Assembly (NCBI GenBank): GCA_937912045.1
Contig: CALDPI010000235.1
Location: forward strand, 1 to 62,571
Reading direction: 5' to 3'
Source of the DNA: an uncultured Clostridia bacterium
GTDB taxonomy: Bacteria; Bacillota; Clostridia; Oscillospirales; Acutalibacteraceae
DNA length: 62,571 bases
Shown piece by piece: positions 10,338 to 46,245 of the stretch. Numbering within the stretch: position 1 is the stretch's first letter; each line of letters begins with the position of its first letter. A program made the position numbers and the translations under genes. The notes below the pieces were generated by a model that saw only the letters and a program-made list of their open reading frames with translations, did not search any database and was not told the origin of the DNA.

Positions 10338-10339
10338 CG

Positions 10340-11548: not shown

Positions 11549-11549
11549 T

Positions 11550-13736: not shown

Positions 13737-13752
13737 AGTGTCTCCCTGCAAC

Positions 13753-13788
13753 AATGCCCACACCGTCCAAAAGGGCAGTGTGGGCATT
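13753..13788 (-). other. Intercistronic 11-bp perfect hairpin between the two GH78-like genes
   Basis: aatgcccacac (13753-13763) pairs with gtgtgggcatt (13778-13788) around a 14-nt loop. There is no U-tract on the coding (minus) strand. Confidence 0.5.
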
Positions 13789-13792
13789 TGTT

Positions 13793-15733: not shown

Positions 15734-15746
15734 AAATTGCACCTCT

Positions 15747-17187: not shown

Positions 17188-18168
17188 TTATGAAAACTCG
17201 GAATATCTTGCTTTGATTTTTTCTTCTGTTTTATTCTCAGGATACTTTGCATCGGCTGAGAGGAAGAGCTTGAAGTCCTTAAAGTCAATCTTTCCGCCGC
17301 GGTTGAACACAGCAAATCCGAGCTTTGTTCCCTCGGGAACGGCGTACATATCGGCGTAACTGTTCCAATCGCCGACGGATGCGTTGTTCTTTTCCATTAT
17401 GAACTTACGCTTGCCTGCCTTGTTCTGTGTTATGATACCGAAACGGGAATTACCCTTTTCTAACACCTTTGAACTGAAGCAAACGTCATACACGCCGGGC
17501 TTTTCAACCGGCAACCAGGCGATGTAATAATATCCGAGGCCCTTGCCCTCATAGTGGAGAACATCGTCGGAGAACGCCACAAAGTCGCATCTCTCAACAA
17601 ATGGCTCTGACCACTTTTTGAAATCCGCAATAATGTTCTTTTCGGGCTCGCAGGTGTTGGCGTCCTCAACCCAGTTGACAGAAAACGCCTCTGTTTTGCT
17701 GGAAACAGGAATGGCATCTGCCATTTTGAACACGCGAACATCGGAAAGCACAACCTCGCCCTCGGTGCCGTGGGTCCAGAATGCCATTTTTTCATTACTG
17801 CCCGAGGAGAAAGCGTAAACGCGTGTGTATTCACTTCCGTCCTGACCTCTGATTGTCAGCTCCTGGTCGGTGCCGCCGCGGAAAACAAAGAACGAAAGCT
17901 CGTACTTTTGGAAGTGGTTTTCAAGCGGAAGACCCTCACTGTCGCAAATGCCGAACTGGAAATTTGTCCAATCGGGCAGGACAACCCTTCCCGTAACTGT
18001 GAGGAAATAAAGTGTATCAGGTTCGGTTTCGAAGCAGGTCTTTGACACAAGCGTGTCACCCTTGTAGGTTTTTTCGCCCGCTAATCTTAAAATGCATTTA
18101 TCGTCTTTACAGGTCAGGCTGTGGTACTGTGTGCGTCTGCCTGCTGCGGTTTTAGAAAATTCTGTCAT
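17188..18168 (-). CDS. Hypothetical cytoplasmic protein, two beta-sandwich (CBM-like) halves
   Basis: 326 aa with no signal peptide. The start overlaps the upstream stop (TAATG at 18166-18170). I recognise no family. Confidence 0.7.
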   Translation of the reverse strand: MTEFSKTAAGRRTQYHSLTCKDDKCILRLAGEKTYKGDTLVSKTCFETEPDTLYFLTVTGRVVLPDWTNFQFGICDSEGLPLENHFQKYELSFFVFRGGTDQELTIRGQDGSEYTRVYAFSSGSNEKMAFWTHGTEGEVVLSDVRVFKMADAIPVSSKTEAFSVNWVEDANTCEPEKNIIADFKKWSEPFVERCDFVAFSDDVLHYEGKGLGYYYIAWLPVEKPGVYDVCFSSKVLEKGNSRFGIITQNKAGKRKFIMEKNNASVGDWNSYADMYAVPEGTKLGFAVFNRGGKIDFKDFKLFLSADAKYPENKTEEKIKARYSEFS

Positions 18169-19475
18169 TAGAAGGTCACCTTCTTTTCTAGTGTGAGCAA
18201 CGGGGATACCGTACTGCTGCCGTCGGCAAAGAAAGCCGTTACACGATAGGTTTCAAATTCGCCTGCATCGGCGTGGGCGCTGTGCAGAATATCGGGGAAT
18301 TCATCATATTCCTCCTGCTTGACCCTGTCAACCTCAACAAATCCGGCGGGGGTCTGACATTCAAGCAGATACTCTGTTGCACCGCGTGCGCCGAACCACT
18401 GAATGTTGTCGGTTGAATCGGTAATTACAAGACAAGGAACGTCCTTTTCGGTCACGCCCTTGCGTGCGTTTTCCACGTCTATACTGCGGAAACGGAGATA
18501 TGCGGCGGTTTTGCGCAGCTCACCCTCTTTATTGACGATGTGCATCTCGCCGCCACCGCCTGCCCAGCCGTAGCACCAATAAAATCCGCCTGCGACGCCG
18601 AATTTTTCAAAATTGGCGTAGTATTTTTTTAGTACCTCAATCTGCTCGTCGTCGGTCTTGTTTGCGTAATTACCAACGCCGTATTCACCCAGCATTAAGG
18701 GACGTTCAAGCAGCATCTCACGCGTATCGGCAAATGCACCTGCGTCGTTATAAATATCGCAGCCGTAAAAATCGACGTCCACGTCGCTATAGTAGCCGCC
18801 CAAAATTGTGCTGTGGCTCGAGCCTGACGAAACGGTTGTTGCAAAGCGTGGGTCAAACTCCTTAACCGCTTTTGCCACCTGATTTATAAAGCGTTTCATA
18901 GATTTCCACGCCATTCCGCGTGTAACATTCCAAATTGCGCCGTCCGCCTCCGGCTCGGCATATATGTCCACAAGCTCCACACCGTATTTGCGGCTAAGCT
19001 CCAAAATCGGATAGACATAATTTTTTATATACTTATCAGTTTCGGAGGGCACCTGCATAAAGCGTGTGTGCTTGTCATATTCAAACTTATTTCCTGTGAA
19101 TGAGCATTCACAATGGTCAAAGAGGCAAATGCTTATGTTAAGGTCAACGTCACGCGCAATCTGATAAAGTCTTTCAAGATTTTGCAAAAACAAAGGCTCT
19201 ACACCGATAACGGTGCCCTTTTCATCATAGAGCATTCCCTCAAACGCTTCATTAAGCCAGATTTTTGCCATTTCATAGCCCATCATTCTGGCGTTATAAA
19301 AGGTTTTTCTTATATATTTTTCATTAAAACAGCACTCGCCTGCGTTGTTTCCGTAAAAGGTGGTGCCGATATCGCGGCCATACCATTTTCCCTGGAACCA
19401 CGGAATGTAAATTCCGTTTACATAGCCGTTTTTTTCAAGCCTTTCGCTTATATAGGTTTTTGTATTATTTGCCAT
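18168..19475 (-). CDS. Cytoplasmic clan GH-A (GH5-like) TIM-barrel glycosidase
   Basis: Start trimmed to MANNTKTY (ATG 19475). No signal peptide. It is a paralogue of 40966..42960: compare KNGYVNGIYIPWF with KGYVNGIQQPWF, YAEPEADG with FVEPESNG, and MLGEYGV with VYGEFGI. Confidence 0.72.
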   Translation of the reverse strand: MANNTKTYISERLEKNGYVNGIYIPWFQGKWYGRDIGTTFYGNNAGECCFNEKYIRKTFYNARMMGYEMAKIWLNEAFEGMLYDEKGTVIGVEPLFLQNLERLYQIARDVDLNISICLFDHCECSFTGNKFEYDKHTRFMQVPSETDKYIKNYVYPILELSRKYGVELVDIYAEPEADGAIWNVTRGMAWKSMKRFINQVAKAVKEFDPRFATTVSSGSSHSTILGGYYSDVDVDFYGCDIYNDAGAFADTREMLLERPLMLGEYGVGNYANKTDDEQIEVLKKYYANFEKFGVAGGFYWCYGWAGGGGEMHIVNKEGELRKTAAYLRFRSIDVENARKGVTEKDVPCLVITDSTDNIQWFGARGATEYLLECQTPAGFVEVDRVKQEEYDEFPDILHSAHADAGEFETYRVTAFFADGSSTVSPLLTLEKKVTF

Positions 19476-19514
19476 AATATCACCTGTTTCTTTGCGGTAA
19501 ATTCGCTTTATAAA

Positions 19515-19542
19515 TATGTGACAGGGCGTATGCCCTGTCACA
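19515..19542 (-). other. Perfect 12-bp hairpin just downstream of the SBP gene
   Basis: atgtgacagggc-gtat-gccctgtcacat. On the minus strand it is followed by ATTTAT, so it could be an attenuator or an mRNA-stabilising 3' structure. Confidence 0.6.
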
Positions 19543-19556: not shown

Positions 19557-20978
19557 TTATTTAAAGCTGAAAGATTTCTTTTCTTTCTCGTAATCTCTGA
19601 TTGCACCGTCAACAACTGTTGTCCAGGATTTGATGGAGTTCTCCAAGCTCTTTGAAGGGTCGCTGAGCTCAGCATAGAGGGTCCAAACCTGATTGCCGAT
19701 AATGTCGGGTTCAACCGAGAAGTAGGTTTTGCCTGTAACAGCCTTCTTCCAGCGCTCTACCCACGCTTTGTTAGACTGTGAAATAGCCTTCATATTTGCC
19801 TGATAATATGCTCTCCAGTTGACAAGTGAATAGCCCAATTCAGGGTTCTTTGCCTTGCGCGGAACAATACCGAGTTGAACACCTATGGGCTGGTAGCTTG
19901 TTCCACCTGTGTATGACGGGAAGGGAACCCAATCCCATTCAAACTTGGCGTTCTTCCAGCTTTCATACTTGTCAACACGAACAGGGTACTGATCGTAAAC
20001 ATACATTGCAATATTGCCACCCGTCCAAGAGCCCTGGTCCTTGGTCATATAGTTGTTTTTGTTCAGTTTCTTAACGAATTCGTAAGAATCCTTCATTTCC
20101 TTGCTGTTTATTGTGTTTGTGAAGTTGCCGTTGTTAGGTTTAATAACAGAAGCACCTGCGGAAAGCGAGAATGCACCGTAACCGTCATACTTTGCACCCC
20201 ACTGAGTAACATTGCCGCTCTTGTCCTTAACGGTCAAAGCCTCTGCAAGCTCATAGAATGCATCCCAGGTCCACTTGCCCTCGTTATAGTAATCAAGCGG
20301 GGTCTTCTTAACCTTTGTAGAGCTTCCGAAAATCTTCTTATTGAAATATACAAATTTGGTACCGCCCCAAAAATGGTCGGTTATGCCGTAGTATTCGCCG
20401 TTGTACTTGCAGGCGTCCATAAGGTTATATGCAAGCCAGGTGTCCTTGCTCTTATCGATATACTTTGTAAGGGGCTGTGCCAATCTCTTGGTGATAAAGG
20501 ACGGGAAATAGTTGTTGGCATCGAACATTGTTGCATCAGGAGCGTCGTTTGCGGCAATAAGCGCAGTCAGCTTCTGGAACATAAGGGTTGCATCTGCAAC
20601 AGGAATGTATTTGATTTTTGCACCTGTCTGCTTCTCATACTCATCGTAAATCTGCTTCTCCCACGGTTCCGGCGTGTACCAAAGCAACAGCTTTACGGTC
20701 TTGCCCGAATAGTCAACGTCGAAACGGCCTGCCGTTTCCTTGTTGTCAACAACGTTACCGGGCTGGGTTACCTTGCTGGAGGTATCCTTTTTGGACGTTG
20801 TGTCCTTTTTGGAGGAAGCGTCCTTGTCGGTATCGGTATCTTCCTTGCTTACCGTTTCGGTAATGAAAGACTCAACATAGTATTCGCTTCCGTCCTCTCC
20901 GCCTGTGGTGATTGAGCAGGCTGTGAGGCCCAGCACCATCAAAAGACAGAGAACCAAAGAAAGAGTTCTTTTTAACAT
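19557..20978 (-). CDS. ABC transporter sugar-binding lipoprotein (family 1 SBP)
   Basis: Lipobox LGLTAC. A Ser/Thr/Asp/Lys-rich linker is followed by an SBP_bac_1-like body. AAAGGAGA SD. Confidence 0.9.
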   Translation of the reverse strand: MLKRTLSLVLCLLMVLGLTACSITTGGEDGSEYYVESFITETVSKEDTDTDKDASSKKDTTSKKDTSSKVTQPGNVVDNKETAGRFDVDYSGKTVKLLLWYTPEPWEKQIYDEYEKQTGAKIKYIPVADATLMFQKLTALIAANDAPDATMFDANNYFPSFITKRLAQPLTKYIDKSKDTWLAYNLMDACKYNGEYYGITDHFWGGTKFVYFNKKIFGSSTKVKKTPLDYYNEGKWTWDAFYELAEALTVKDKSGNVTQWGAKYDGYGAFSLSAGASVIKPNNGNFTNTINSKEMKDSYEFVKKLNKNNYMTKDQGSWTGGNIAMYVYDQYPVRVDKYESWKNAKFEWDWVPFPSYTGGTSYQPIGVQLGIVPRKAKNPELGYSLVNWRAYYQANMKAISQSNKAWVERWKKAVTGKTYFSVEPDIIGNQVWTLYAELSDPSKSLENSIKSWTTVVDGAIRDYEKEKKSFSFK

Positions 20979-21011: not shown

Positions 21012-21887
21012 CTATCCGACCAGGCCGGAGTGTTCAATACCCTGAATGAAGTATTTCTGCAGTGCCGCGTACATAACTATCATCGGCGTGAGGAAGAGCA
21101 TAACACCCGCCATAAGTTGATTTCTTATGGTGGCAATGCCCGTTGATGCCTGTGAAAGCGTCGATTTCAAGGTTGATAGCAGGGTTGAAAGCGGCGACAG
21201 TTCATCGAAGAACATTGTCGGGATGAGGGTTTCGTTCCAGTACCACACGATTGAAAGTATGGCAACAACCAGGAATGAAACCGCCGACGACGGAACAACA
21301 ATCTTCCAATAGGTCTTAAAGGTGCCGCAGCCGTCGATATATGCTGCTTCTTCAAGCTCTTTGGGCAGGTTTTTAACAAACTGCCTGAATATGTATATCA
21401 TAAGTCCTGAACGGACGCCCTGACCCAAAACCGCAGGCAAGAAATACGTAAAGACCGAATCAAGCAGTCCCATACCCTTAAATATTGCATACTGCTGTAC
21501 TATAAGCATCTGCGGCGGTACGATGATTGTAACAATTACAAGGAAAAACAGGAGGTTTTGTCCGCGGAATTTAAACCTTGCAAGTCCGTACGCTGCCAAG
21601 GAGCAACTGAATATTTGGAAAAGCACGCTCATACATACGAGGAAGACGGTGAACAAGAAGTTAGTTCCGTACTCCATTGTGTTCCAAACTGTAACATAGT
21701 TGCTGAAGGTCACCATCTTTGGCACCCACACGACCGAGGGGTCCAGAAGCTGGTCGTTTGTCATAAGACTTGTGCTTACAGCGTAGATAACCGGGAACAA
21801 AATAATATAAATTATTCCGATTAAGAATGCCCAGCGCACAATGCTTGCCAAAACGGAGCGAACTATATTTGCTGTTTTATTATTCAA
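21012..21887 (-). CDS. Carbohydrate ABC transporter permease
   Basis: 6 TM. The EAA loop LPKELEEAAYIDGCGTFKTYWKIVVP is present. Confidence 0.92.
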   Translation of the reverse strand: MNNKTANIVRSVLASIVRWAFLIGIIYIILFPVIYAVSTSLMTNDQLLDPSVVWVPKMVTFSNYVTVWNTMEYGTNFLFTVFLVCMSVLFQIFSCSLAAYGLARFKFRGQNLLFFLVIVTIIVPPQMLIVQQYAIFKGMGLLDSVFTYFLPAVLGQGVRSGLMIYIFRQFVKNLPKELEEAAYIDGCGTFKTYWKIVVPSSAVSFLVVAILSIVWYWNETLIPTMFFDELSPLSTLLSTLKSTLSQASTGIATIRNQLMAGVMLFLTPMIVMYAALQKYFIQGIEHSGLVG

Positions 21888-21899
21888 TTTGTTCCCTCC

Positions 21900-22841
21900 C
21901 TACATTGCTGCGCGCTTAAGCGGTTTTCTGAATATGAACAGGATTGCACCGATAACGACACCCAAAATTACGAAATAGCTCCACATTATTGCAGATGATT
22001 TGTTATAGTTGCTTTCCTGAATCAAGGTGTATGCCTGTTGCATAACCTGGTTGTTATTGGACGTGAACAGGTCGATACAGGTGTATACAACGTTGAGTAC
22101 GATAACGTTTGCCATCATCGGAACGGTGACGTACCAAAAGGTTTCCCAGCCTGTTGCACCCTCGACCTTTGCAACCTCATAATACTGTGCCGAAATGGAC
22201 TGCAGACCTGCAAGGAACAGAATCGTCTGCACGCCCGAGCTCCACACAAGGTTGAAGATGGACGAAATGTACTCATTAAGCTGTTTGACCAGTGCTGCAG
22301 GAAGACCTACGTTTTCCAGCATTGTGGAAAAACTGAAGGAATTGTAAAGTCCGCCGCTCGAACCACCGCCCGACTCGAGAAGTGCCTGCGCGTTGGAGTC
22401 GCCGTTTAAATAGGTGAGCACAACGCCGCTGGCAATTATAACGGGCAGGAAGAATATTGCTCTGACTATAAGTCTGCCACGGAAATTCTGATTAAGAACG
22501 ATTGCGAACACAAAGCTCAAAAACAGAATGATGGGCAAAGAATAGAAAAAGTCAACAATCGAGTCAAAAAGGTTGGTGGTGAATTTTGTATCCACCGTCC
22601 AGATTTCCTTAAAAAATTCTATTCCCGAGAAACGAGTGGCAAAATAATTTATAATCGTTCCATCATGTTCGTCAAGTGGGTTTGCGTTTGAAAAGGCGTA
22701 CCAGATTGACTGCAGCGCGGGATATAAGAAGAATACAAGAAAGCCCACAACCCACGGGATTGTAAACACGAAGCCCTGACGGGCGCGGCGCTTCTCCATC
22801 GAGGCGGGGAGTTTTGATTTGCTGAATATTGTGTTTTTCAT
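21900..22841 (-). CDS. Sugar ABC transporter permease
   Basis: Polytopic, with the loop ISAQYYEVAKVEGATGWETFWYVTVP. Confidence 0.92.
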   Translation of the reverse strand: MKNTIFSKSKLPASMEKRRARQGFVFTIPWVVGFLVFFLYPALQSIWYAFSNANPLDEHDGTIINYFATRFSGIEFFKEIWTVDTKFTTNLFDSIVDFFYSLPIILFLSFVFAIVLNQNFRGRLIVRAIFFLPVIIASGVVLTYLNGDSNAQALLESGGGSSGGLYNSFSFSTMLENVGLPAALVKQLNEYISSIFNLVWSSGVQTILFLAGLQSISAQYYEVAKVEGATGWETFWYVTVPMMANVIVLNVVYTCIDLFTSNNNQVMQQAYTLIQESNYNKSSAIMWSYFVILGVVIGAILFIFRKPLKRAAM

Positions 22842-22854: not shown

Positions 22855-25062
22855 CTATCTCTTAATTATAAAGTCGTTTGCGCCGACACTGACGTTATCA
22901 GAATTATAGTCGACCTCACCACAGTTAATGGTGATTTCCACTCCATTGCTGAAGGTTGTTTTATAAACGTCGTCTGCGAGGACCGAGAAGCCGCTTATCG
23001 TTGCGCCCTGCGTTGCCTCGATAGCTTCTTTACCTCTTGCGACTGTTTTTGCCAAGGTTCCCTTGCGGTCAGAATAGCTGCCTGCCGCAAGTGAATCGAA
23101 TATGGATGCCGAATACTCGCTGGTTTCTGTGCCGCAAACGGTGAAGCAAAGGCCCGAACCGAGTGCCACAGAACGCAGGAATTCATCTGCTTCATTATCC
23201 GACAAGGTGAGCGATGCACCCGACATTGCCTTATAGCCCTTAAATACTATATGGTAGAAGGGCAGCCATTCGTCCTCAACCGAGAAGCCACTGCTGTTTG
23301 TGGGCGAATTAATAATATAATCCGCGCTTACTGCGGCAAAGCTGTTTGCAGAGTCGAGCATAAGCTCTGTACCGTTTTTGCTCAGTACACCTGTTGCTTT
23401 TGTAACGTTTTCCGCAAACTGAAGGGCAACGTAGTTTTCTTCCCTACGATAATCACCATAGCAAATGTTACCGAGTGTGCTGAGCGATACGCCGCCCCAA
23501 CCACTCTTGCTTATGGTTTTCTCAAGCTTTTCTGCCGCTTCCTTAAAGAAATTGGGTGCGAGCAGATAATACTCGTATGCGTTTTTCATAGTTCCGCCCG
23601 TAGAAACCGAGTAGAAATACTGTGACGCCTTAAGCGAGGTTGTTGAGGTTGCTGCGTCGGTATTAACCTTAAATCCGTTAGACGATTTTGTGAAACGGAC
23701 AAGGTCAAAATCGGGGAAAAGCTTTGCGCCGTTTTCTTCTGCGGTGTTAATAAGTGCAGAAATCGCCTTTTTATTACCAAGCTTGCCCTCAGTTTTAAAG
23801 CCGCCTGCAATCTTTGTGGCATCAAGTCCGCCGTTTTGAACACCGGTGAGTCTTACAGCCAATGAAGCGCCTGTTTGCTTTGCCACGTCAGCCACAATTT
23901 CTGCCGCCTGTGCATATGTGGTAATGGGCTTTATAACCTTTTTGGGAATACCAAAGAAGAATTCGCGCTTTGAGGCAGCCATTGGCAAATCAAGATAGAC
24001 TGTGCTTTCTTTTTCTGCCTTTTCGAGTCCTTTTTCTTCTATAAGATATTCTCTATAAACGTCAGCCGTCTTGAAGAAATCTGTATCTGCGCCGTCCAAA
24101 ATCATTATGCGCTGACCAATTTCACCCGTTGCTGCGTTTTTGCTGAACTGGTTACCTATCATAACGCTGCCCCAGCCCTGCGGCAGAGCGATTGCCTCTG
24201 CGCCGCGAATGGCAAAGGTGGTGTATGCATAGGAGAAGCCAAGGTCCAAATCACCTGCGGTGGCGACGATTTCTGCACATTCCTCACCCCTGTCGATGAT
24301 TGTGCAATAGGTCTGCTCCGCATCACTTACCGCATACACGGGAAGCTTGACATCCTCTGTATCGGTAAATCTGTACTGTGTGGTCGAGGCTTTATCCTCG
24401 CCGTATACATAACCCTTATAGGTGCGCATGGCACGGTCTGTATCACAGTACATTACCATACCGCTGCCGTCGGGCATAAACATCTCGTTTTCTTTTTTGT
24501 TCTCAACCGATGAGGCATAAGGCAGAACCGAGATTTTATAAATCTGGTGCTGGCTTTCATATATGCTGTCAAGGTCAATTTTTACATCGAGATATCCGTT
24601 AATCAAACGGTATTCAACCGGAATTGCCACGCACTGCTCGTCAAAGCAGTAAAGCAATCTGATGCCGTTTTCTATTTTATATGAATATGTTCTTCCGTAT
24701 TCATATGCACCTGTGTAGGAGGTGACGGTGTTAAGACCCTTGTCATTTATGCCCTTGCTCTCGATTATGAGCGTGGACTCGAGGTAGCTTTTAACGCCGC
24801 CCTCATACAAATTGCCGAGGTACTGCTCTTTCGGCATACTTGACCATACAAGCGTGTCGCCCTTATATATAAGCAACGCCATACGGTCGGCATCCCAATC
24901 GAGTCTGAGTTCACCGTCCTGTGCGACGGTGCCGCTCGCGGCATAGTTTTCGGTGGTTTTAACGGGTTTGCCCTCTGCATTTTCAGTTACAATGCCGCAA
25001 CCCGATAAGACTGTAATTAGCTGAATCAGACAAAGAATCAGACATATTAATTTTTTTCGCAT
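22855..25062 (-). CDS. Large lipoprotein of unknown function (DUF5696-like by recollection)
   Basis: Lipobox VLSGCG and AGGAGG SD. 735 aa with no motif I can assign. The DUF5696 label comes from memory of similar loci and is unverified. Confidence 0.55.
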   Translation of the reverse strand: MRKKLICLILCLIQLITVLSGCGIVTENAEGKPVKTTENYAASGTVAQDGELRLDWDADRMALLIYKGDTLVWSSMPKEQYLGNLYEGGVKSYLESTLIIESKGINDKGLNTVTSYTGAYEYGRTYSYKIENGIRLLYCFDEQCVAIPVEYRLINGYLDVKIDLDSIYESQHQIYKISVLPYASSVENKKENEMFMPDGSGMVMYCDTDRAMRTYKGYVYGEDKASTTQYRFTDTEDVKLPVYAVSDAEQTYCTIIDRGEECAEIVATAGDLDLGFSYAYTTFAIRGAEAIALPQGWGSVMIGNQFSKNAATGEIGQRIMILDGADTDFFKTADVYREYLIEEKGLEKAEKESTVYLDLPMAASKREFFFGIPKKVIKPITTYAQAAEIVADVAKQTGASLAVRLTGVQNGGLDATKIAGGFKTEGKLGNKKAISALINTAEENGAKLFPDFDLVRFTKSSNGFKVNTDAATSTTSLKASQYFYSVSTGGTMKNAYEYYLLAPNFFKEAAEKLEKTISKSGWGGVSLSTLGNICYGDYRREENYVALQFAENVTKATGVLSKNGTELMLDSANSFAAVSADYIINSPTNSSGFSVEDEWLPFYHIVFKGYKAMSGASLTLSDNEADEFLRSVALGSGLCFTVCGTETSEYSASIFDSLAAGSYSDRKGTLAKTVARGKEAIEATQGATISGFSVLADDVYKTTFSNGVEITINCGEVDYNSDNVSVGANDFIIKR

Positions 25063-25078: not shown

Positions 25079-27193
25079 CTAATTATTTCTATAAACTACT
25101 TCGTTATAAACCGAGCGAATAAACTCTATAACATCCTGGAAAAGTGTGAGCACAAGCAAAATGAGGAATGCGCAAAGAATCATTCCCACGATTGTGACCA
25201 GACTCATTCCGAGTGCACGGAAGAAGCTGTAATCGTGTATGATTGTGAGCTCTACAAGCAACACCACAATGGTGATTAACCAGCAGATTGCCTGTGCGCC
25301 TGAGAGAATCGCCTGCTCGCTATATACAAGAACGTGCGATGCTACAATGAAGAATGCGCTGTATATAATCTGCGGAATGAGGGCAAAGCCCGTTACAATC
25401 ACAATCTCCTTAAAGGTACCCTTGCCTTCAAACAGGGTGCAAAGGCCCCAGTTTACAACACACCACAAGGCTGCAATTCCGACCGTGGTGATAAACACCA
25501 TTGCCGAATTGTACTTGTCGGGGTCGAAGTTTGTATACATGAATCCGCCCCAGGTGGTTTCAAGCACCTTGCCGATGAACATAAGCAGCATTATGCCAAC
25601 GGATATCAGCACGTAAATATTAAGCTGCTTGGATTTCTGCTTGCGAAGTGCCCTCATTTTAAGCGAGGTCTGAATCGGACGCCAGGGTGCCAAAAGCGCC
25701 GTCATGGCGATGCCGGGCTCACGCTTTTCACGCGGGTGCTTCTTGCGCCAGATGAGATATGCAATTATTCCTGCAACCGCCAGAATTGCAACAATAAAGA
25801 TAATTGCAAAGTTATCGGCAAGCAGATTAAGTCTTACCTGCTCAAACGCACGCTCGTAAATGTCACGCTCGTAACCGAGTTCTGCATATTTGAGGGCGTT
25901 TTCATAATCCTCAACCGCGATATAATAGTTGGCTATACCAACGTACGCCATCTGGTTGTAGCCGTCCTGCTCCTTAACCTGAAGCCAGAGCGGATATGCG
26001 CCTTCAAAATCGCCGTCCTCTGTTTTTGCCATTGCCGAAAACAGAAGCTCACCAAAATCTGTAAGGCCGAAGACCGTAACGCTGTTGGTGGTTGAGTCAA
26101 CAACAAGCACTTCCTGTCCGTTAATGGCAATTTCTGCGGCATTCTGGAAGGTGCCGACCTGCTCGCCCAAGCCCTTGCCGCCGCCAAATGCTGTAACAAG
26201 GTTGCAGGTTTCATCATAGACAAAAACTCTGCCATAGGTCGAATCAAGTCCGTATATATAGCCGTTGTCATCAACCGCGATAGCAACAAAATGCTCGGTT
26301 GCGGAATGCTTATCAATAAGTGTTATGGATTCACCGTTGCCGAAGGCAAAGTTATCAGCCGATTCACCGTCGCGGTTAAGAATGTTTATTCCCGAATAGC
26401 TGAGCTTTCTAAGCTGACCCTTGCCACTTTCGGAGTTTGCCGTTGCGGTATAAATAAAGCCGCCTTTTTCATAAATATCGTCAAACTCATATGGAAGCTC
26501 ACGCAGAGAATATTCATACTGCGCATCGGTTTTAAGTGTATTAACAAAGAAATTCTTTATTGCATCAAGCACCGTTGCAGAGGTCAGGTTTGCGCCGAAA
26601 AAGCCGCAAAACTCATACTTAGAATTAAATACGAGCGCGCCATAAATACCACCCTCACAGAGAACAAATATAAATCCGTCCTCATCCTCTACTACCTTTG
26701 TCGGCTTAAACTCCATATCATCGGGAACGATGGCCGAATCGGGCTTTGTTATTATCTTGCTGACTGTGCCCGCGGCATTTATAACGACAACATACTCATT
26801 GGTGCTGTCGGCTATGTATATCGTACCTTCAGCTGTGACAAAAAGTCCGTTTGCACTTGAAAGGTCAAGTGCCTCTTCCCCGTTTGCAATATGGTCGATA
26901 ACGCGAATAAATTTATAGTTCTTATCAAGCACGACAATGCGGGAATTTCCGCTGTCAAGCAGGTAGATATAGTCGCCGCAAACGCATATATCGTTTATTG
27001 CGTTGAATGCGCCTATGCCTAAATCCTGTCCTTCTAAATATAGCTTGCTTGCAAAGACATCCTTCTGCTGTACGAGAACGGTCTTACCCTGACCGTTTCT
27101 CTCCTGAAATGATGCAGCGCTTGCGCTGAAGCCCGCTGTCATAATGAGGACGGTCAGAGTGATGCAAACTATCGTTTTAAATAATTTTTTCAT
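25079..27193 (-). CDS. NHL-repeat beta-propeller / TPR / Yip1-domain multi-pass membrane fusion protein
   Basis: Signal peptide, then repeated NHL-like blades (YIYLLDSGNSRIVVLD, TIYIADSTNEYVVVIN, YIYGLDSTYGRVFVYD, VLVVDSTTNSVTVFG). A TPR-like helix pair and one TM follow. The C-terminal ~230 aa has 5 TM and is Yip1-like. Confidence 0.7.
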   Translation of the reverse strand: MKKLFKTIVCITLTVLIMTAGFSASAASFQERNGQGKTVLVQQKDVFASKLYLEGQDLGIGAFNAINDICVCGDYIYLLDSGNSRIVVLDKNYKFIRVIDHIANGEEALDLSSANGLFVTAEGTIYIADSTNEYVVVINAAGTVSKIITKPDSAIVPDDMEFKPTKVVEDEDGFIFVLCEGGIYGALVFNSKYEFCGFFGANLTSATVLDAIKNFFVNTLKTDAQYEYSLRELPYEFDDIYEKGGFIYTATANSESGKGQLRKLSYSGINILNRDGESADNFAFGNGESITLIDKHSATEHFVAIAVDDNGYIYGLDSTYGRVFVYDETCNLVTAFGGGKGLGEQVGTFQNAAEIAINGQEVLVVDSTTNSVTVFGLTDFGELLFSAMAKTEDGDFEGAYPLWLQVKEQDGYNQMAYVGIANYYIAVEDYENALKYAELGYERDIYERAFEQVRLNLLADNFAIIFIVAILAVAGIIAYLIWRKKHPREKREPGIAMTALLAPWRPIQTSLKMRALRKQKSKQLNIYVLISVGIMLLMFIGKVLETTWGGFMYTNFDPDKYNSAMVFITTVGIAALWCVVNWGLCTLFEGKGTFKEIVIVTGFALIPQIIYSAFFIVASHVLVYSEQAILSGAQAICWLITIVVLLVELTIIHDYSFFRALGMSLVTIVGMILCAFLILLVLTLFQDVIEFIRSVYNEVVYRNN

Positions 27194-27206: not shown

Positions 27207-28067
27207 CTATCCCTTAATGCCCGAGCTGCTCATTGTCTTGGTAACACTCGACTGAGAAATGAGATAAACAGTTGTCGGGAACAGAAGCATTATAACCGAT
27301 GCCGCCATTGTACTGCCCTGACGGGTAATACCAGCGGAAGAAATCTGCTCTATAATATTGGGAAGCAACTTTATGTCCTCGTCGAAAATCATTGAAGACG
27401 AGCTCGTTGCCCATAAATCTCTGAACGCGAACAAAACGAGTGTCAGCACGGCAGGACGAATAAGCGGCAGTGCAATCTTGAAATAGATTGTGAAGCAGTT
27501 TGCGCCGTCGATTTTAGCTGCCTCCATCAAAACGTCGGGAATACTGCTGTCCATATACTGTTTAAGCAGGAAAACACCGAGTGTTGACGGTATGTAGGGC
27601 AAAATATATACGAGATAAGTGTTAAGAATCTTAAGCTCTGACATAATTACATACTGCGGAATTGCAAGTGTGTAGGTATTGAAAAGCAGAGCCATCTGAA
27701 CGAGTGCAAAAATGAGTGTATATGCCTTGTGGTGATATTTTGAAAGCGTAAATGCCGCCATGGAGGCAACAAAGACGTGCAGCATTGTCGTAACAACGCT
27801 GACGAAAACGCTGTTGATGATATATCTTGAAAACGGAACCCACTCGGTCGATAACAACTGCGGTAACGCCAGATAGTTTTCAACTGTTGGCGACACAACG
27901 TAAAACTTTGGTGGGAATGCCATGATTTCATCCAAAGGCTTTAATGATGTAACAATAAGATATACAAGCGGCAAAAGCATGAATGCGCCGAACACCGTCA
28001 AAAATATTGCAATGACTGCGGTGCCGAACTTTGAACGCGTATATCTTTTTACCTGATTACGTGCCAT
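27207..28067 (-). CDS. Carbohydrate ABC transporter permease
   Basis: Polytopic, with the EAA loop IPDVLMEAAKIDGANCFTIYFKIALP. Confidence 0.92.
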   Translation of the reverse strand: MARNQVKRYTRSKFGTAVIAIFLTVFGAFMLLPLVYLIVTSLKPLDEIMAFPPKFYVVSPTVENYLALPQLLSTEWVPFSRYIINSVFVSVVTTMLHVFVASMAAFTLSKYHHKAYTLIFALVQMALLFNTYTLAIPQYVIMSELKILNTYLVYILPYIPSTLGVFLLKQYMDSSIPDVLMEAAKIDGANCFTIYFKIALPLIRPAVLTLVLFAFRDLWATSSSSMIFDEDIKLLPNIIEQISSAGITRQGSTMAASVIMLLFPTTVYLISQSSVTKTMSSSGIKG

Positions 28068-28102
28068 AAGTGTTAAACCTTTCCCTTCAATTAATCCAAT
28101 TA

Positions 28103-29005
28103 CTATTTATCAAGCGTATTAAGCAGTTTTCCTATTACATATCTTGTAATTGCCATAAGGGCAAACAGGAAGACCGCTATTGCCGAGGCATAACCCATTT
28201 CGTACCTGACAGTACCGTAGTCTGCCATATGGGTAACGATGGTGTGGGTTATATAGTTAGTACTCGGATTACCGGTAAGGGCTGTTGCAACAGAACTGAC
28301 AGAGAATGCCGCCTGAATCTGCATAACAGCAGAGAAAAGCAGTATGCTCTTCATCGAGGGCAGGGTTATATACCAAACCTCCTGCCAACGATTGCGGATA
28401 CCCTCAATCGCGCCAACCTCGTAAAGCTCGCTTCCGACATTCTGAAGACCCGAAATGTTGGCAAGGAACGAGGTTCCCATACTCATCCACAACTGGACTA
28501 TCATAACAATCGGCAGTGCATAGGCCTCTTCCTTGAGCCAAATAATCGGCTCGGTTATGAAGCCATACTCAAGCAGGAAACCGTTTATGAGACCATAGCT
28601 GTCGCCGCTGAATATAAACAGCCAGATGAAATACACGTTTCCGACAAGCGCGGGCGAATAGAAAACGAAGGAAACAACCGCTCTTGCAACGCGCGGAAGC
28701 TCGTTTATGAACCACGCAAGCAGGAAAGCAAACGCGTATCCGAGAGGACCTGTTATAACAGCGAAAATAAGGGTGTTTTTGAGTGCGATTTTAAAAATAT
28801 CATCGTACAAAAACAGTCTTATGTAGTTCTGCACACCGTTAAACGTCGGCAGATTGAGCATATCAAAGGTTGTAAAGCTCAGCACCACCGATGAAAGAAT
28901 CGGCAAAACGGTGAACAGGAAAAACAGCGCCAAAAAGGGCGTTAAAAGTAACGTAGGCTGAAGAAAGCTTTCGCTTCTGTAGCGTTTTTTAAGTTTCGAT
29001 TTCAC
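28103..29005 (-). CDS. Sugar ABC transporter permease
   Basis: Polytopic, with the loop VGSELYEVGAIEGIRNRWQEVWYITLP. Confidence 0.92.
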   Translation of the reverse strand: MKSKLKKRYRSESFLQPTLLLTPFLALFFLFTVLPILSSVVLSFTTFDMLNLPTFNGVQNYIRLFLYDDIFKIALKNTLIFAVITGPLGYAFAFLLAWFINELPRVARAVVSFVFYSPALVGNVYFIWLFIFSGDSYGLINGFLLEYGFITEPIIWLKEEAYALPIVMIVQLWMSMGTSFLANISGLQNVGSELYEVGAIEGIRNRWQEVWYITLPSMKSILLFSAVMQIQAAFSVSSVATALTGNPSTNYITHTIVTHMADYGTVRYEMGYASAIAVFLFALMAITRYVIGKLLNTLDK

Positions 29006-29017
29006 TTGCTTTCCCTC

Positions 29018-31825
29018 CTACTTATTTACGGAATATTCTTTGCTCTTTCTTTCCATTTCTTCATCTATCATAAGCGCCCACTTGGTAAGAGCATCCTTGG
29101 GTGCTTCGCCATCACTGTAAACGGCATAAAATGCGTTTTCGAGTGAACGAGTTACATAGTAGCTTCCCGGAACCTCGGGTATAAATTCTGCGAGTTTATA
29201 CTGCTCAAGTATAACCTTTGCGTCGTCTCTGCTCCAAGACAGCTGCTGCAGAGCGTTTACGTTTGCTGTGGGCACACGTGCGGCAATACCAACAATCGAC
29301 TCAACGTCCGAGCTGTATCTGTACTGAACGTCGGCGCTGGTCCACCATTTGAGGAACTCCCACGCCTCTTTGGGCGAGTCGGTATCCTTGAGTATTACCG
29401 TCGCGGTCGAGGTGCCGATTGTCTTGTTGTTAAGACCGTCCTTACCTTCAAAGCCCGGAAGCTGATGCACGCTCCAACGGCCGCTGATTTCGGGTGCCGC
29501 CGCCATAAGCGTAGCATAGGTTGTGTAAGGCTCAATGCCCAGCGGCATTTCACCCGTACGGAAACGGTTGTAAAGGCTGAAAGCTACGGGCAGCTTGTAT
29601 TCAACGTACAAATCCGTATAGAAGTTAAATGCATCAAACGCCTCTGCGGTATCAAGGTTGGTTCTTGAAAGGTCGTCCGTATAGAGTGTTCCGCTCTTCT
29701 GATAAAGGAAGGTTCTATAGTTCTGCGGAACGCCCACAGAAAGATTATTTCTCATAAGCACCGCGCAGCAACGCAAAAACTCGTCCCACGTTTTCGGCAC
29801 AGAAATTTCAAACTGTTCAAAAATATCGTCTCTGACGTACATCATATTAAAGGTGATGCTGTCGGCAAGGCCGTAAACGCCACCCTTATATCTGAATGGG
29901 TTGATGGGCTTATCGCTGCCGTAGTTTGCTTGCAGTGTTTCTTCAAAATCCTCAAACTGTGACAAATCATAAAGTGCTCCACGCATTGCAAGGTTAACGG
30001 GTGTGTCATTGCTCTGCATAATGGTGCAGTCAGGCGCATTGCCCGAAAGCTTTGCCTGAATTATTGATGCTGCAGCAATTTTTATGTTGACCTTTATGCC
30101 TGTTTTGGGTGTAAAGCTATCCTCGACCATTTTCTGAAGAACTCTTGACTGGTCGCGGCCGATGTTTACCCAAACGTCGATAACACCCTCGCCCTCTGCC
30201 GTGGAAAGTGAGTTATAGTCAACAATATATGAGGCAAGAAGCTTGTTAAAGCCGAAGACAAATCTTTCAATAAAGTTGGACTTGTACTGCTTGGCGTCAA
30301 CGCTTTCTCCACCTATTATTATCTTTTCAATGTCGAGCGGCATCTTGCGCATTTCGTAAATCCATGCGCCTGCACTACTGTAGTTATTGAAAAGGTCACT
30401 TACGTATTTATGTGCCTTGAACTTCGATTCCAGCATACGCTCGAGAACGAGTGCAAGACTTTCAAGGGTGACGGCATTAGAGCCGCCCTTTGCGCCGGTA
30501 ATGGCGTTATATTCTTTAACCAAACCGTCGATTTCCTCGATATAGCTCTTAAGGTCATCATTAAGAGTAGGAATTTGGTCGTAAAGACGGTAGTCGCGGT
30601 TGGCATCGGGGGTGGTACCCGTAATCATAATTATCTGGCGATACATTTCGCCTACATTATATATAAGTGTCTCAAGTCTGCGGCTGATATCCGCAACGGA
30701 GCCTAAGGTAGCCTTAAGAGAAATGGTGTGCGGACCCTCTTTGAGATAGACATAATAGGGGGTCTCGCCGCCAAAGGTGAGAAGGTTCCACTTGGTGCTG
30801 TAGGGGAACTTGATTTCACTTGCCTCTGCAAACGGGGTTTCCCCGTCTATTTGCAGACTTCTGATTGCACTGGCATTGGTAAGATAACCCTGCTTATATT
30901 TGAAGGTTATGCTATAATATGCATCCTTTGGCGCATTGAATTCCCAGGTGATTCTCTCGCCTGCGGCATCCCAGTTGCTGCCGCCGATGCAGTTAATTGA
31001 GGTGTGGTATGCGCTTGACGGATTGAGCGACGGGTCTGTGCCGTCTGCCAGGGGACGAAGCTCCTTAGAGCTTTTATCTTTTGCCTCCTGCGCTTCAATT
31101 ACAACGTCGGCTCCGTCATAAATGTCTGATGCGTCTTCGGCTGAATACGCGGGGGTCTTCACAGCGCCCGAAAGTGTGATGGATTCAAGCGCAATTGTGC
31201 CCGAATAAAGCTCGATTGTGATGGTGTTTGCACCTTTTGCGAATGCGAACTTAAGCGGCTCTAAATAAAGCTCGTCGGGGTCAATCAGCTTTTCTGACAC
31301 CCATTTTGGCAGCTGTATCTGAGTGGGGCTGGACTGATTTCCGAGGGCATCCTCTGTGGGCTTTCCTTCGTCAACCCAAACGCGCGGCAGGAACATGCTG
31401 TCTGCCTCCGCGAAGGGCTCTGTGCCGTTGATTTTGCAGGAAAGCTCTATTTTTGATTCGCTGTTGTCAACAGCGGCATAGTTAAGTGCGATGTTGTAAA
31501 GCGCAGCTGTCTCACAATTAACGTTAAAGGAAACAGGGCCGCTTTCTGAATCTATAATAAGGACGTTGTCCTTATCGCAATATGAACCAAGCTTTGCGCT
31601 TGAGCCCTCTGTGGCAACGAAACCTGACGCATCTATTTTCATAGATGCGCCGGTATAATCGTTTTTGCCTTCGAGGTAATCGATGTATCCGCTGCCGGCT
31701 GTAGCGGCGGCAGCGGTTGGATTGATGTCAGACACCGTGTCAGCAGAGCATATGACCTGCGAAAACAGTGTTGTTATCAAAGATATAATTAAAACTGTGC
31801 AAGTGAACTTTGAAACGTATTTCAA
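29018..31825 (-). CDS. Oversized extracellular solute-binding protein (N-terminal ~520-aa CBM-like/helical extension + family-1 SBP body)
   Basis: The track ORF starts at 31840 (TTG). That TTG lies inside a GGGAGG sequence which sits 7 nt before the TTG at 31825, so 31825 is the more likely start. N-terminal signal/TM. The C-terminal ~400 aa are SBP-like (IDVWVNIGRDQSRVLQKMVEDSFTPKTGIKVNI...). Confidence 0.78.
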   Translation of the reverse strand: MKYVSKFTCTVLIISLITTLFSQVICSADTVSDINPTAAAATAGSGYIDYLEGKNDYTGASMKIDASGFVATEGSSAKLGSYCDKDNVLIIDSESGPVSFNVNCETAALYNIALNYAAVDNSESKIELSCKINGTEPFAEADSMFLPRVWVDEGKPTEDALGNQSSPTQIQLPKWVSEKLIDPDELYLEPLKFAFAKGANTITIELYSGTIALESITLSGAVKTPAYSAEDASDIYDGADVVIEAQEAKDKSSKELRPLADGTDPSLNPSSAYHTSINCIGGSNWDAAGERITWEFNAPKDAYYSITFKYKQGYLTNASAIRSLQIDGETPFAEASEIKFPYSTKWNLLTFGGETPYYVYLKEGPHTISLKATLGSVADISRRLETLIYNVGEMYRQIIMITGTTPDANRDYRLYDQIPTLNDDLKSYIEEIDGLVKEYNAITGAKGGSNAVTLESLALVLERMLESKFKAHKYVSDLFNNYSSAGAWIYEMRKMPLDIEKIIIGGESVDAKQYKSNFIERFVFGFNKLLASYIVDYNSLSTAEGEGVIDVWVNIGRDQSRVLQKMVEDSFTPKTGIKVNIKIAAASIIQAKLSGNAPDCTIMQSNDTPVNLAMRGALYDLSQFEDFEETLQANYGSDKPINPFRYKGGVYGLADSITFNMMYVRDDIFEQFEISVPKTWDEFLRCCAVLMRNNLSVGVPQNYRTFLYQKSGTLYTDDLSRTNLDTAEAFDAFNFYTDLYVEYKLPVAFSLYNRFRTGEMPLGIEPYTTYATLMAAAPEISGRWSVHQLPGFEGKDGLNNKTIGTSTATVILKDTDSPKEAWEFLKWWTSADVQYRYSSDVESIVGIAARVPTANVNALQQLSWSRDDAKVILEQYKLAEFIPEVPGSYYVTRSLENAFYAVYSDGEAPKDALTKWALMIDEEMERKSKEYSVNK

Positions 31826-31875
31826 AATTATACCTCCCAAATTAAGTGCCTGACATCAATAAAACTCATTTTGCT

Positions 31876-42960: not shown

Positions 42961-43634
42961 TCTTCCTCCTTTAAAAGAATTTTTGCCGAAAATATCACAA
43001 TCATATTATAATACGCGTACATTATGTAAGTCTTCTCATTTTATAGCAAATCACTCTCAAAAATCATTATTTACTAACTTTTTTACACTTTTTTACCATT
43101 TTTTTGCCGTTTTTTTCTTTGGATGCAGTTTTGCGATTGACACTTCTTCTAAAAACCAGCGGCATATTTTCAAATTCATTCGTCATTTTCACAACGTTTT
43201 TGTCCCATTTTTCCTTCGGATTTGTGTTTTTTGGGATTGTTTTCACTAAAACAGACATTTTCTCGCACAACATATTGTGTTTTTGGATAAAATACACCAC
43301 AAAAATGTGGTTTTTATGTACATATAGTATATATAATATCGGCGTTCTCATCCTGATTTTTTCGAATTCACTGACGGTGCGTGTTGGTAAAATTTTTATC
43401 TCAAAAAACACGAAAATAATTGTTTTTTGCATTGCTTTTTTACTTTATAGATGTTACAATTACCATAAAGACACATATTTTTTATTACATTTGTTACAAC
43501 TTTTTATCAAGCAATTATTTTAAAAACAAACTTTTTTAAATAATTGTGTGGTTATTTTCTATAGAGTTTAGACCCATTTAGTGTTATTATTATTTTATCA
43601 ACCGTTGTTCCCCTATTATGAAAGGAGAAGCAAA

Positions 43635-44456: not shown

Positions 44457-44460
44457 AAAA

Positions 44461-44482
44461 GACCACGATGAAAATCGTGGTC
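44461..44482. terminator. Bidirectional terminator
   Basis: gaccacgat-gaaa-atcgtggtc, flanked by AAAAAA and TTT. Confidence 0.8.
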
Positions 44483-44515
44483 TTTAATTATACATATTTA
44501 CGAAAAGTTTTCGTT

Positions 44516-46132: not shown

Positions 46133-46245
46133 AAAAACCTCTCCTTTTTATTTGTTTAATATGCTTGAAGACAAGTACATAATACACTTTTTTGATGCAA
46201 AAGTACTCTCATTTTTAACTTTTTTTATCTCAATTAATACTGTTT

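Follow-up and report, generated by a model that had tools for sequence, protein, structure and literature searches.

What is a protein that joins an extracellular NHL propeller and TPR repeats to a Yip1-type membrane domain doing among the genes of a sugar importer? The question is raised by one gene in a 62,571-nucleotide stretch of DNA (hereafter the window) from an uncultured Clostridia bacterium of the Acutalibacteraceae. The original prediction regarded the product as a fusion and offered a sensor, a gate or a scaffold as its role. Gram-positive fibre degraders of gut and soil are thought to import oligosaccharides by simple SBP-plus-permease ABC systems, and the fixed, widely distributed cassette described here adds to an importer pair two conserved and unstudied surface and membrane proteins. 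A literature search found no paper describing an NHL-Yip1 protein, and in databases the family is named 'YIP1 family protein'.

Domain structure of the NHL-Yip1 protein

The gene is a single 704-codon open reading frame on the minus strand (window positions 25079-27193), with the ATG at 27193 and the stop at 25079-25081. An AGGAG is found 10 nt upstream of the start codon, where it overlaps with the stop codon of the permease gene before it. The product carries, in this order, a signal peptide, a six-bladed NHL propeller, about 2.5 TPR repeats, a TM helix, a 43-aa basic cytoplasmic loop and a 5-TM Yip1 domain (Table 1). Every element of the order first proposed is present by reading frame, Pfam, hydropathy and the AF2 model (pLDDT 86), and the NHL and Yip1 assignments both lie above their Pfam cut-offs.

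Table 1. Positions in the window of the protein's parts and of the neighbouring cassette genes
Feature	Position	Strand	Basis
Second, ordinary-sized SBP, 473 aa, closing the cassette	19557..20978	-	Pfam SBP_bac_1
'B' permease pair, 313 and 291 aa, BPD_transp_1	21012..22841	-	Pfam; NCBIfam UgpA/UgpE/MalG-like
DUF5696 lipoprotein gene, 735 aa, lipobox LSGC	22855..25062	-	Pfam DUF5696, 422 bits
Yip1 domain, aa 523-704, five TM helices	25082..25627	-	Pfam, hydropathy, AF2
Basic cytoplasmic loop, aa 486-522	25628..25738	-	Charge count, conservation
TM helix 1 (TM1), aa 461-485, outside to inside	25739..25813	-	Hydropathy peak 3.03; AF2 helix 462-485
TPR-like helical pedestal, aa 379-460, running straight into TM1	25814..26059	-	AF2, profile
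Extracellular six-bladed NHL beta-propeller, aa 28-378	26060..27112	-	Pfam, profile, AF2, Foldseek
Signal peptide, aa 1-27 (MKKLFKTIVCITLTVLIMTAGFSASAA)	27113..27193	-	Hydropathy segment aa 3-27
'A' module: 940-aa giant SBP and two permeases (300 and 286 aa)	27207..31840	-	Pfam

It had been considered that a frameshift or an assembly error might have made one frame out of a gene for NHL-TPR and a gene for Yip1. Split versions in other genomes would fit such a joining, as would a paralogue on contig C120 of the same MAG that looks frameshifted. Against it, a 98%-identical protein from other assemblies also has 704 aa, eight homologues with 74-82% identity have exactly this length, more than 100 more distant homologues of 690-730 aa each carry both Pfam domains, and the fused size is found in 87 of the best 150 representatives. 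Since the same frame recurs in independent assemblies and more than 200 full-length homologues exist, a sequencing artefact is excluded and the gene is real; we rate the chance of a chimera as negligible.

The hydropathy segment of the signal peptide is followed by an ASA-A motif (...SASA/AS), of which A26 is at least 90% conserved, and we infer cleavage after SASA. The next part was first read as a propeller with at least four blades. The propeller stands and the count was short, since the AF2 strands group into six blades (pLDDT mostly above 85), with a low-confidence helical insert (aa 200-235) between blades 3 and 4. Pfam NHL (PF01436) scores 23.3 bits against a cut-off of 20 and matches 49 of 52 homologues (best E 8e-17), and the family profile matches the PDB NHL domains of PknD, TRIM71, Brat and Thin at E 1e-18 to 1e-35. 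In Foldseek, six-bladed NHL domains make up the whole of the top 20 (target TM-score 0.55-0.77), and the best of them reach 0.70-0.77 at E 1e-10 to 1e-12. The TPR part, first described as a helical pair, was likewise undercounted: the AF2 model has five helices (379-392, 396-409, 414-426, 430-439 and 443-460). With the family profile, aa 388-442 align to consensus-TPR structures (E about 1e-14 for designs of three repeats), and TPR families of Pfam (TPR_2) match 17 of the 52 homologues; this protein alone matches only TPR_21, at E 0.086, which is under the cut-off.

The propeller itself could be the working part, with Yip1 as no more than its membrane tether. It would then act on the substrate independently of the transporter, either as a glycan-binding lectin or as a lyase, lactonase or esterase-like enzyme. 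Six-bladed propellers of the NHL/SGL type do include enzymes, a point that also counts against the adaptor role proposed below. The SGL (SMP-30/gluconolactonase) lactonase family is matched by 12 of the 52 homologues, one split homologue (P0109) is named 'Gluconolactonase' by one source, and virginiamycin B lyase (at a lower rank), a lactonase-family protein and the B12-binding lipoprotein BT2095 are among the Foldseek matches. However, the top structural matches are non-enzymatic NHL interaction domains, and the conserved propeller residues form repeated structural Y-x-x-D and G-N-x-R-I-V-V motifs. Conservation in the propeller falls on structural signature positions of NHL and TPR, and no evident catalytic set stands out among them. 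In addition, a conserved 5-TM domain bearing conserved cytoplasmic-loop motifs is more than a plain tether calls for, and the strict adjacency to the DUF5696 and permease genes would be left unexplained. We therefore consider a working propeller of this kind unlikely. A specificity domain was also sought by comparing divergence rates, with no difference found between parts: because propeller, TPR and Yip1 diverge equally (about 31-33% identity), nothing marks the propeller as the specificity element, which also counts against the adaptor role.

Among known proteins, PknD of M. tuberculosis has the same six-bladed NHL propeller (PDB 1rwi; profile E 1e-23), and there too it is extracellular and carried by one TM helix. 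The propellers of the eukaryotic Thin, TRIM71 and Brat are six-bladed too and give Foldseek target TM-scores of about 0.76; TRIM2 is likewise a eukaryotic NHL protein. The present propeller differs from all of these in its helical insert and in the TPR repeats that follow it. Furthermore, the TM helix of PknD leads to a cytoplasmic Ser/Thr kinase, whereas the one here leads to a Yip1 bundle without an output domain.

In the membrane part, the loop RKKHPREKREPG...RALRKQKSKQ (aa 483-525) holds 13 K/R against 2 D/E, which agrees with the positive-inside rule and places the N-terminal side of Yip1 in the cytoplasm. No Pfam or NCBIfam match was found within these residues. P506 of the loop is invariant in 52 sequences and belongs to the family motif HP...F. 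The Yip1-like 5-TM C-terminus was read correctly at the outset: Pfam Yip1 (PF04893) scores 35.3 bits against a cut-off of 28.6 over aa 514-676 (profile positions 12-170 of 173), and it matches 51 of the 52 homologues (best E 8.8e-19). Five hydropathy segments follow the loop (526-545, 564-585, 597-619, 632-652 and 660-685), in agreement with the AF2 helices (523-548, 563-587, 594-618, 624-653 and 657-703). A motif N581-W582-x3-T-L-x2-G590-x-G592 is conserved in a cytoplasmic loop, as are H653 and E698 in the same domain. Searched by sequence in the PDB, the Yip1 part matched no solved structure, and Foldseek of the whole model returns propellers alone because these dominate the alignment.

The eukaryotic Yip1/YIPF proteins belong to Golgi and ER trafficking and interact with Rab/Ypt GTPases, which to our knowledge are absent from bacteria; a role of this kind is not to be expected here. 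They share PF04893 above the gathering threshold with the protein here, and in both the five TM helices come after a cytoplasmic segment. In the eukaryotic proteins this segment is a cytoplasmic N-terminal domain, whereas here it is the 43-aa basic loop, preceded by an extra TM helix and a large ectodomain. The eukaryotic signature motifs of Pfam Yip1 are DLYGP and GY; before the first Yip1 TM helix, the present family has its own H-P-x3-F (APWRP in this protein) rather than DLYGP.

An extracellular NHL domain, one TM helix and a cytoplasmic segment recall the sensor domain of PknD, and the cytoplasmic motifs HP..F, the EGKG loop and H653 are conserved. Ligand binding to the propeller might be relayed by TM1 and Yip1, so that the ABC importer next to it is opened, closed or regulated, or a regulator receives a signal. 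Yet Pfam and NCBIfam searches found no kinase, HAMP, GGDEF or DNA-binding domain as a cytoplasmic output, the cytoplasmic part being the 43-aa basic loop and short turns. Nor do the cassettes have the same regulator beside them: locus L001 has a LacI, L002 has a sigma factor, and here no regulator is adjacent. A classical sensor is judged unlikely because there is no output domain, and we regard the sensor or gate reading as improbable.

The family, its DUF5696 partner and the sugar-uptake cassette

The fusion first noticed here is real but not peculiar to this locus. We found the NHL-Yip1 family in 32 of 401 sampled genomes (8%), distributed across the Bacillota, and the fusion is its commonest form. 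A search for related loci with a 9-sequence alignment had returned only three Acutalibacteraceae MAGs, and the wider survey was made by genome search. Split forms occur in 9 of the 32 carrier genomes. The split point is the cytoplasmic loop, which gives an NHL-TPR-TM gene and a Yip1 gene; the NHL half retains TM1 as a C-terminal anchor, and the Yip1 gene begins just before the HP..F motif and encodes 205-230 aa. This alternation between fused and split forms implies that the two halves work as one physical unit. The present MAG (1.6 Mb, 83% complete) has five NHL-Yip1 copies with a mutual identity of 25-30%. An exact look-up of the homologue P0094 from Paenibacillus thermotolerans gave no match on record.

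Immediately downstream of the gene lies a DUF5696 lipoprotein gene, which the original prediction did not mention. It occupies this place in 26 of 26 loci (25 related loci and the divergent G350 locus). The NHL-Yip1 and DUF5696 families occur in 32 of the 401 genomes each, 31 of them shared and both exceptions explained, and the present MAG has five copies of DUF5696 beside its five of NHL-Yip1. By these counts, DUF5696 is the constant, obligate partner gene of NHL-Yip1. The AF2 model of the DUF5696 protein (pLDDT 85, pTM 0.86) matches ZgGH129 (5opq, E 3e-28) and NagBb (5wzn, E 2e-23) in Foldseek, with target TM-scores of 0.64-0.72, and the DUF5696 profile reaches 5opq among PDB sequences at E 1.6e-5. 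As modelled, the protein has a GH129/GH101-like glycosidase fold. The HMMER alignment with ZgGH129 spans chain residues 35-104, 282-417 and 615-663 only, and the catalytic residues, D486 among them, lie outside it.

The predicted location inside a sugar-import operon was borne out by SBPs and BPD_transp_1 permeases on either side. Two sets of an SBP and a permease pair, with the features of CUT1-type importers, flank NHL-Yip1 and DUF5696. The giant SBP has SBP_bac_1/8 matches and a CBM-like N-terminal half (weak CBM_35 match), and the permeases of its 'A' module are of the BPD_transp_1 family. The gaps from NHL-Yip1 to the flanking permease genes are 12-35 nt here, and permeases flank the gene in the 25 related loci as well. 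Among these, the giant SBP and the 'A' permeases stand directly upstream of NHL-Yip1 in 17 and the 'B' pair follows DUF5696 in about 22; cassettes that are rearranged keep the NHL-Yip1, DUF5696 and 'B' permease block intact. A counterpart of the second SBP is placed in the same way in L001, L044, L046, L053 and others. The CAZymes nearby (two GH78, GH106, GH2, GH3, GH5-CBM4_9 and SGNH esterases) mark the locus as one for glycan utilisation.

An ATPase is essentially absent from the cassettes (1 of 322 ORFs, located in a flank). MalK-type ATPases are encoded elsewhere in all eight complete carrier genomes that were searched. The present MAG, 83% complete, yielded no MalK-type ATPase, its sole GPSGCGK-type ATPase being a PotA orthologue, and this weighs against the adaptor role discussed next. 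The CUT1 importers of Gram-positive PULs likewise combine SBP_bac_1/8 proteins and BPD_transp_1 pairs with adjacent glycoside hydrolases and, as in the complete carrier genomes, an ATPase encoded elsewhere (a shared one of MsmX/MalK type). An ordinary CUT1 operon has one SBP and one permease pair, without Yip1, NHL or DUF5696. In the present cassette there are two pairs of permeases, a giant SBP that bears a CBM, and NHL-Yip1 together with DUF5696, and their order is fixed.

A possible membrane adaptor for glycan import

Bacterial Yip1 proteins were at first taken to be essentially uncharacterised, and this is not wholly so. YknW of B. subtilis is a Yip1-family subunit that modulates the assembly of the YknXYZ ABC exporter (PMC4887032, PMC4338810), and in bacteriocin clusters Yip1 proteins are repeatedly encoded next to ABC transporters (PMC10707071). 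YknW (known from B. subtilis and B. amyloliquefaciens as the fourth subunit of YknWXYZ) and the BawG-type proteins likewise consist of a multi-pass Pfam Yip1 domain of about 200 aa. They too are encoded in operons with ABC membrane components, and they are considered to serve the transporter as accessory or assembly subunits and not to form the path of transport themselves (PMC4887032, PMC4338810, PMC10707071). The split Yip1 proteins of the present family are of YknW size, the likeness being one of Pfam family, size and operon context. The exporter partnered by YknW is of MacB type (type VII) and comes with a membrane fusion protein and a dedicated ATPase, whereas the partners here are CUT1-type type I importer permeases and SBPs, with no membrane fusion protein and no ATPase in the operon. 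YknW is also without an ectodomain, and the protein here has, or pairs with, a 430-aa NHL-TPR ectodomain and an extra TM helix.

Of the roles first offered (sensor, gate or scaffold), the evidence favours the scaffold. We suggest, at about even chances and from genetic linkage and analogy, that NHL-Yip1 may be a non-catalytic membrane adaptor of a conserved Bacillota glycan-uptake cassette. The architecture, the alternation of fused and split forms, the linkage, the co-occurrence, the lack of an output domain and of a catalytic set, and the Yip1 precedent all speak for this role. Within the membrane, the importer permeases, most likely the 'B' pair, would be the docking site of TM1 and the Yip1 bundle, in parallel to the association of YknW with the YknXYZ exporter. 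The propeller on its TPR pedestal would stand on the outer face and hold DUF5696, a glycan, an SBP or several of these above the transporter, so that an oligosaccharide released at the surface could be handed directly to import. The energising ATPase, of MsmX/MalK type, would be encoded elsewhere and be common to several cassettes. The partners of YknW belong to a different ABC class, and the analogy may not transfer.

Alternatively, the protein could be a factor for biogenesis or assembly and not belong to the working machine in stoichiometric amounts. Its Yip1 domain would then aid the large surface proteins of the cassette (giant SBP, DUF5696) or the permeases in insertion, folding or oligomerisation. 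Membrane trafficking is where the eukaryotic Yip1 proteins act, and TPR domains are common interaction modules of the chaperone type. YknW is also reported to modulate the oligomeric state and assembly of YknX and YknYZ rather than to transport (PMC4887032, PMC4338810). Each of the five cassettes in this small genome, however, has its own strongly diverged copy, which fits a specific structural partner better than a general assembly factor, and we see little likelihood in this reading.

If the adaptor role is extended to the whole cassette, the NHL-TPR-Yip1 protein and the GH129-fold DUF5696 protein might form the core of an unrecognised multi-subunit machine of monoderms for glycan capture and import, a counterpart in function of the Bacteroidota Sus. 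In such a machine Yip1 would represent a new class of transmembrane accessory subunit, coupling the processing of glycans at the surface to one or two type I ABC importers. We put this forward tentatively, at somewhat less than even chances. Should the Yip1 bundle dock to the permeases, no earlier transmembrane accessory subunit would have been described for CUT1 importers, and bacterial Yip1 would gain, besides its part in the YknW exporter, a second role that can be tested. Because fused and split forms both occur in nature, they offer a ready-made design for interaction experiments; in Anaeromicropila herbilytica, the two halves are encoded as a separate 482-aa NHL gene and a 206-aa Yip1 gene.

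Reading frame, topology and predicted fold

In the present study, the NHL-Yip1 gene was found to be one open reading frame (see the table), and the translation of the plus strand over the same interval is full of stops. The ATG is preceded at 10 nt by an AGGAG, which shares bases with the stop codon of the permease gene upstream. The original prediction had named two genes joined by a sequencing error as the case that would count against it; this is not so, since the same 704-aa frame is present in other assemblies (one protein 98% identical and eight 74-82% identical, each of exactly 704 aa), and the probability of an artefact is negligible.

Features of the NHL-Yip1 protein and its cassette (nucleotide positions in the window; aa, residues of NHL-Yip1)
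Feature	Position	Strand	Evidence
NHL-Yip1 gene, 704 codons	25079-27193	-	translation
Signal-like N-terminal segment	aa 3-27		hydropathy
NHL repeat	aa 64-88		Pfam, 23.3 bits (cut-off 20)
TPR_21	aa 384-438		Pfam, sub-threshold only
TM1, one strong TM segment	aa 461-485		hydropathy
Yip1 PF04893	aa 514-676		Pfam, 35.3 bits (cut-off 28.6)
Five further TM segments	between aa 526 and 685		hydropathy
Cassette order: 940-aa SBP with CBM-like N-terminal half; two permeases; NHL-TPR-Yip1; 735-aa DUF5696 lipoprotein; two permeases; 473-aa SBP	from 31840 downward	-	DUF5696, 422 bits
457-aa and 326-aa proteins	17188-19541	-	no Pfam or NCBIfam match
435-aa protein, N-terminal TM/signal segment	15747-17054	-	no Pfam match
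CAZyme-rich stretches	8532-15742 and 40966-60874		

The domain order read earlier from the translation (signal peptide, NHL propeller, TPR, TM helix, basic loop, Yip1) was right according to Pfam, hydropathy, the AlphaFold2 model, Foldseek and the family profile. The HMM searches that had been called for placed both Yip1 and NHL above their Pfam cut-offs, and the basic strings quoted from the loop are present after TM1. This loop (aa 483-525) carries 13 K/R vs 2 D/E, a charge expected of a cytoplasmic loop. An NCBIfam search of the protein added nothing specific; among 52 homologues, Pfam matches were obtained for Yip1 in 51, NHL in 49 and TPR_2 in 17.

The AlphaFold2 model, built from the alignment of these 52 homologues (A1), had a mean pLDDT of 86 and a pTM of 0.73. 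In it, the strands of aa 28-378 form six four-stranded blades, the helical insert at aa 200-235 being predicted poorly; aa 379-460 form five helices continuing straight into the TM helix 462-485, and aa 523-703 form five long helices. Thus the propeller and the TPR-like helices of the original prediction were recovered in larger numbers, six blades instead of at least four and five helices instead of a pair. The best Foldseek matches in the PDB were the six-bladed NHL domains of Thin, TRIM71, TRIM2/3 and Brat (E 1e-10 to 1e-12, target TM-score 0.70-0.77). Searched against PDB sequences, the family profile matched these NHL domains again, together with the sensor domain of PknD (1rwi) and, at aa 388-442, consensus-TPR proteins; for the Yip1 part, no relative of known structure was found by sequence search. 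By the HMM and fold criteria of the two families, the protein belongs to both Pfam Yip1 and the NHL propellers.

Family spread and the fused and split forms

The homologue search gave 213 matches, mostly of 690-730 aa with both PF04893 and PF01436, and those that bear a name in their source database, from Clostridia, Paenibacillus thermotolerans and Halanaerobiaceae, are called 'YIP1 family protein'; among named relatives, Acutalibacteraceae MAGs are the nearest. HMMER, run exhaustively with aa 455-704 as query, returned 1173 cluster representatives when E <= 1e-3 was required, and 609 of these also passed E <= 1e-10. Of the best 150, 87 have the length of the fusion (650-760 aa) and 33 that of a lone Yip1 protein (190-300 aa). 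The proposed survey of distribution demonstrated that the fusion is recurrent and not one-off: the family is carried by 32 of the 401 sampled genomes of the phylum, in 19 of 278 genera, with two to three candidates scored per genome, so that NHL-Yip1 and DUF5696 copy numbers in this sample are lower bounds. The family is already catalogued and named in databases, and the interest lies in an unstudied family and cassette rather than in the uniqueness of this locus. Full-text literature searches found no paper mentioning DUF5696, none combining Yip1, polysaccharide utilisation and ABC transporters, and nothing pertinent on a 'YIP1 family protein' together with glycoside hydrolase.

At the equivalent cassette position, Anaeromicropila herbilytica has two genes, one for a 482-aa NHL protein and one for a 206-aa Yip1 protein, with the stop of the first overlapping the start of the second. 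This split form occurs in 9 of the 32 carrier genomes, one of which (G377) carries a fused copy as well. In eight split loci the NHL-TPR half retains the signal peptide, the C-terminal TM helix and the basic tail, and the Yip1 half begins just ahead of a conserved H-P-x3-F motif (P506 in the window protein). The break thus falls exactly in the cytoplasmic loop, which supports the topology. By the usual logic of fusion and splitting, this alternation is an argument for the Yip1 bundle acting as one physical unit with the NHL-TPR-TM1 part. The window's own genome has a clean loop split on contig C98 (490 + 205 aa), unlike the break on its contig C120 (7358-9395, locus L012), where one of five paralogues is interrupted within the propeller and reads as overlapping frames of 152 and 577 aa; this is a pseudogene with a frameshift or else an error of assembly.

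Obligate pairing with DUF5696 and linkage to importer permeases

The gene neighbourhood gave the principal finding. From 31840 down to 17188 all genes lie on the minus strand with gaps of 12-35 nt, and solute-binding proteins (SBPs) and permease pairs flank NHL-Yip1 on both sides, as expected from the sugar-import operon described originally. In 25 related loci, with ORFs labelled by BLAST against the window proteins and their paralogues, DUF5696 directly follows NHL-Yip1, fused or split, in 25/25; the downstream 'B' permease pair comes next in about 22, and in 17 the giant SBP and the two 'A' permeases are immediately upstream. Where the locus is rearranged, NHL-Yip1, DUF5696 and the B permeases still form one block and the 'A' module is relocated. 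In some lineages (L049-L052, L054, L062, L066) this module is displaced or missing from the 20-kb neighbourhood, with the others still together. Since these genes stay joined without it, a minimal core of four genes is suggested.

DUF5696 was present in 32/401 sampled genomes, 31 of them common to the NHL-Yip1 carriers. The sole genome with only NHL-Yip1 holds merely a contig-end fragment, and in the sole one with only DUF5696, the gene directly upstream proved to be a divergent NHL-Yip1 fusion of 635 aa. The window's genome, a 1.63-Mb MAG of 83% completeness, carries five NHL-Yip1 and exactly five DUF5696 genes, all in the same order, with paralogue identities of 25-29% (NHL-Yip1), 21-28% (DUF5696) and 39-55% (A permeases).

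The predicted model of DUF5696 (pLDDT 85, pTM 0.86) matched GH129 best in Foldseek (ZgGH129 5opq, E 3e-28; NagBb 5wzn, E 2e-23; target TM-score 0.70-0.72), followed by GH101, GH36 and GH31. Its sequence profile also matches ZgGH129 (E 1.6e-5), in an alignment without the catalytic Asp. As modelled, DUF5696 is a protein of the GH129 fold and a putative glycosidase. In one metagenomic cassette (L002:11166-17180) it is nearly three times as long as usual (2004 aa) and, from this length, must carry large extra domains.

The genes of the 457-aa and 326-aa proteins, just downstream of the cassette, share one base where the stop of one meets the start of the other (18168), and their position is kept in the closest relatives (L044, L046); the gene of the 435-aa protein separates the cassette from two GH78-like genes. 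In the complete genome of L047 (G132:C1:213800-233799), the A2 permease gene is broken (189 + 215 aa) by an opposite-strand 442-aa ORF, probably an insertion element.

Proposed role, ATPase and substrate

The precedent is the Yip1-family protein YknW of Bacillus, which is required for the exporter YknXYZ and modulates its assembly (PMC4887032, PMC4338810), and Yip1 proteins recur next to ABC exporters in bacteriocin clusters (PMC10707071). By analogy, we propose that NHL-Yip1 works like YknW. YknW partners an exporter of the MacB type that has a fusion protein, whereas NHL-Yip1 has a large NHL-TPR ectodomain and is encoded beside sugar importers. As exporter and fusion protein are wanting, it should be called a Yip1 accessory protein with large NHL-TPR ectodomain on sugar importers.

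TM1 and the Yip1 bundle would dock onto the permeases, probably the B pair, and the TPR pedestal and propeller would hold DUF5696 and/or the glycan or a binding protein over the transporter. We regard such an adaptor as having an even chance of being correct. That NHL-Yip1 is instead an assembly factor is improbable to us, and the same low probability is given to a ligand-operated gate or sensor, against which stands the absence of a cytoplasmic output domain from the architecture; a PknD-type sensor was rejected for this reason. A propeller acting as lectin or enzyme is somewhat less improbable, while still unlikely. The propeller, TPR and Yip1 parts have diverged at the same rate, a comparison that sets none of them apart.

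Location of the ATPase outside the operon is usual for CUT1 importers, which include the type I importer permeases of the cassette. Only 1/322 ORFs in the 25 loci is ABC ATPase-like, located in a flank, and a MalK/MsmX-type ATPase is encoded elsewhere in 8/8 complete or near-complete carrier genomes. In the window's MAG no such ATPase (OB_MalK domain) was found despite at least ten CUT1-type permease pairs, and the single ATPase of GPSGCGK type there (C100:3640-4728) is an orthologue of PotA. Incompleteness of the MAG is probably the cause, being the simplest explanation because 17% of the genome is absent.

The CAZyme-rich stretches of the window encode two GH78 rhamnosidases, GH106, GH2, GH3 and GH5 with CBM4_9, together with two SGNH esterases and an alpha/beta hydrolase. 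From this content, the substrate of this cassette copy is probably a rhamnose-containing complex glycan, and acetylation of the glycan is likewise suggested.
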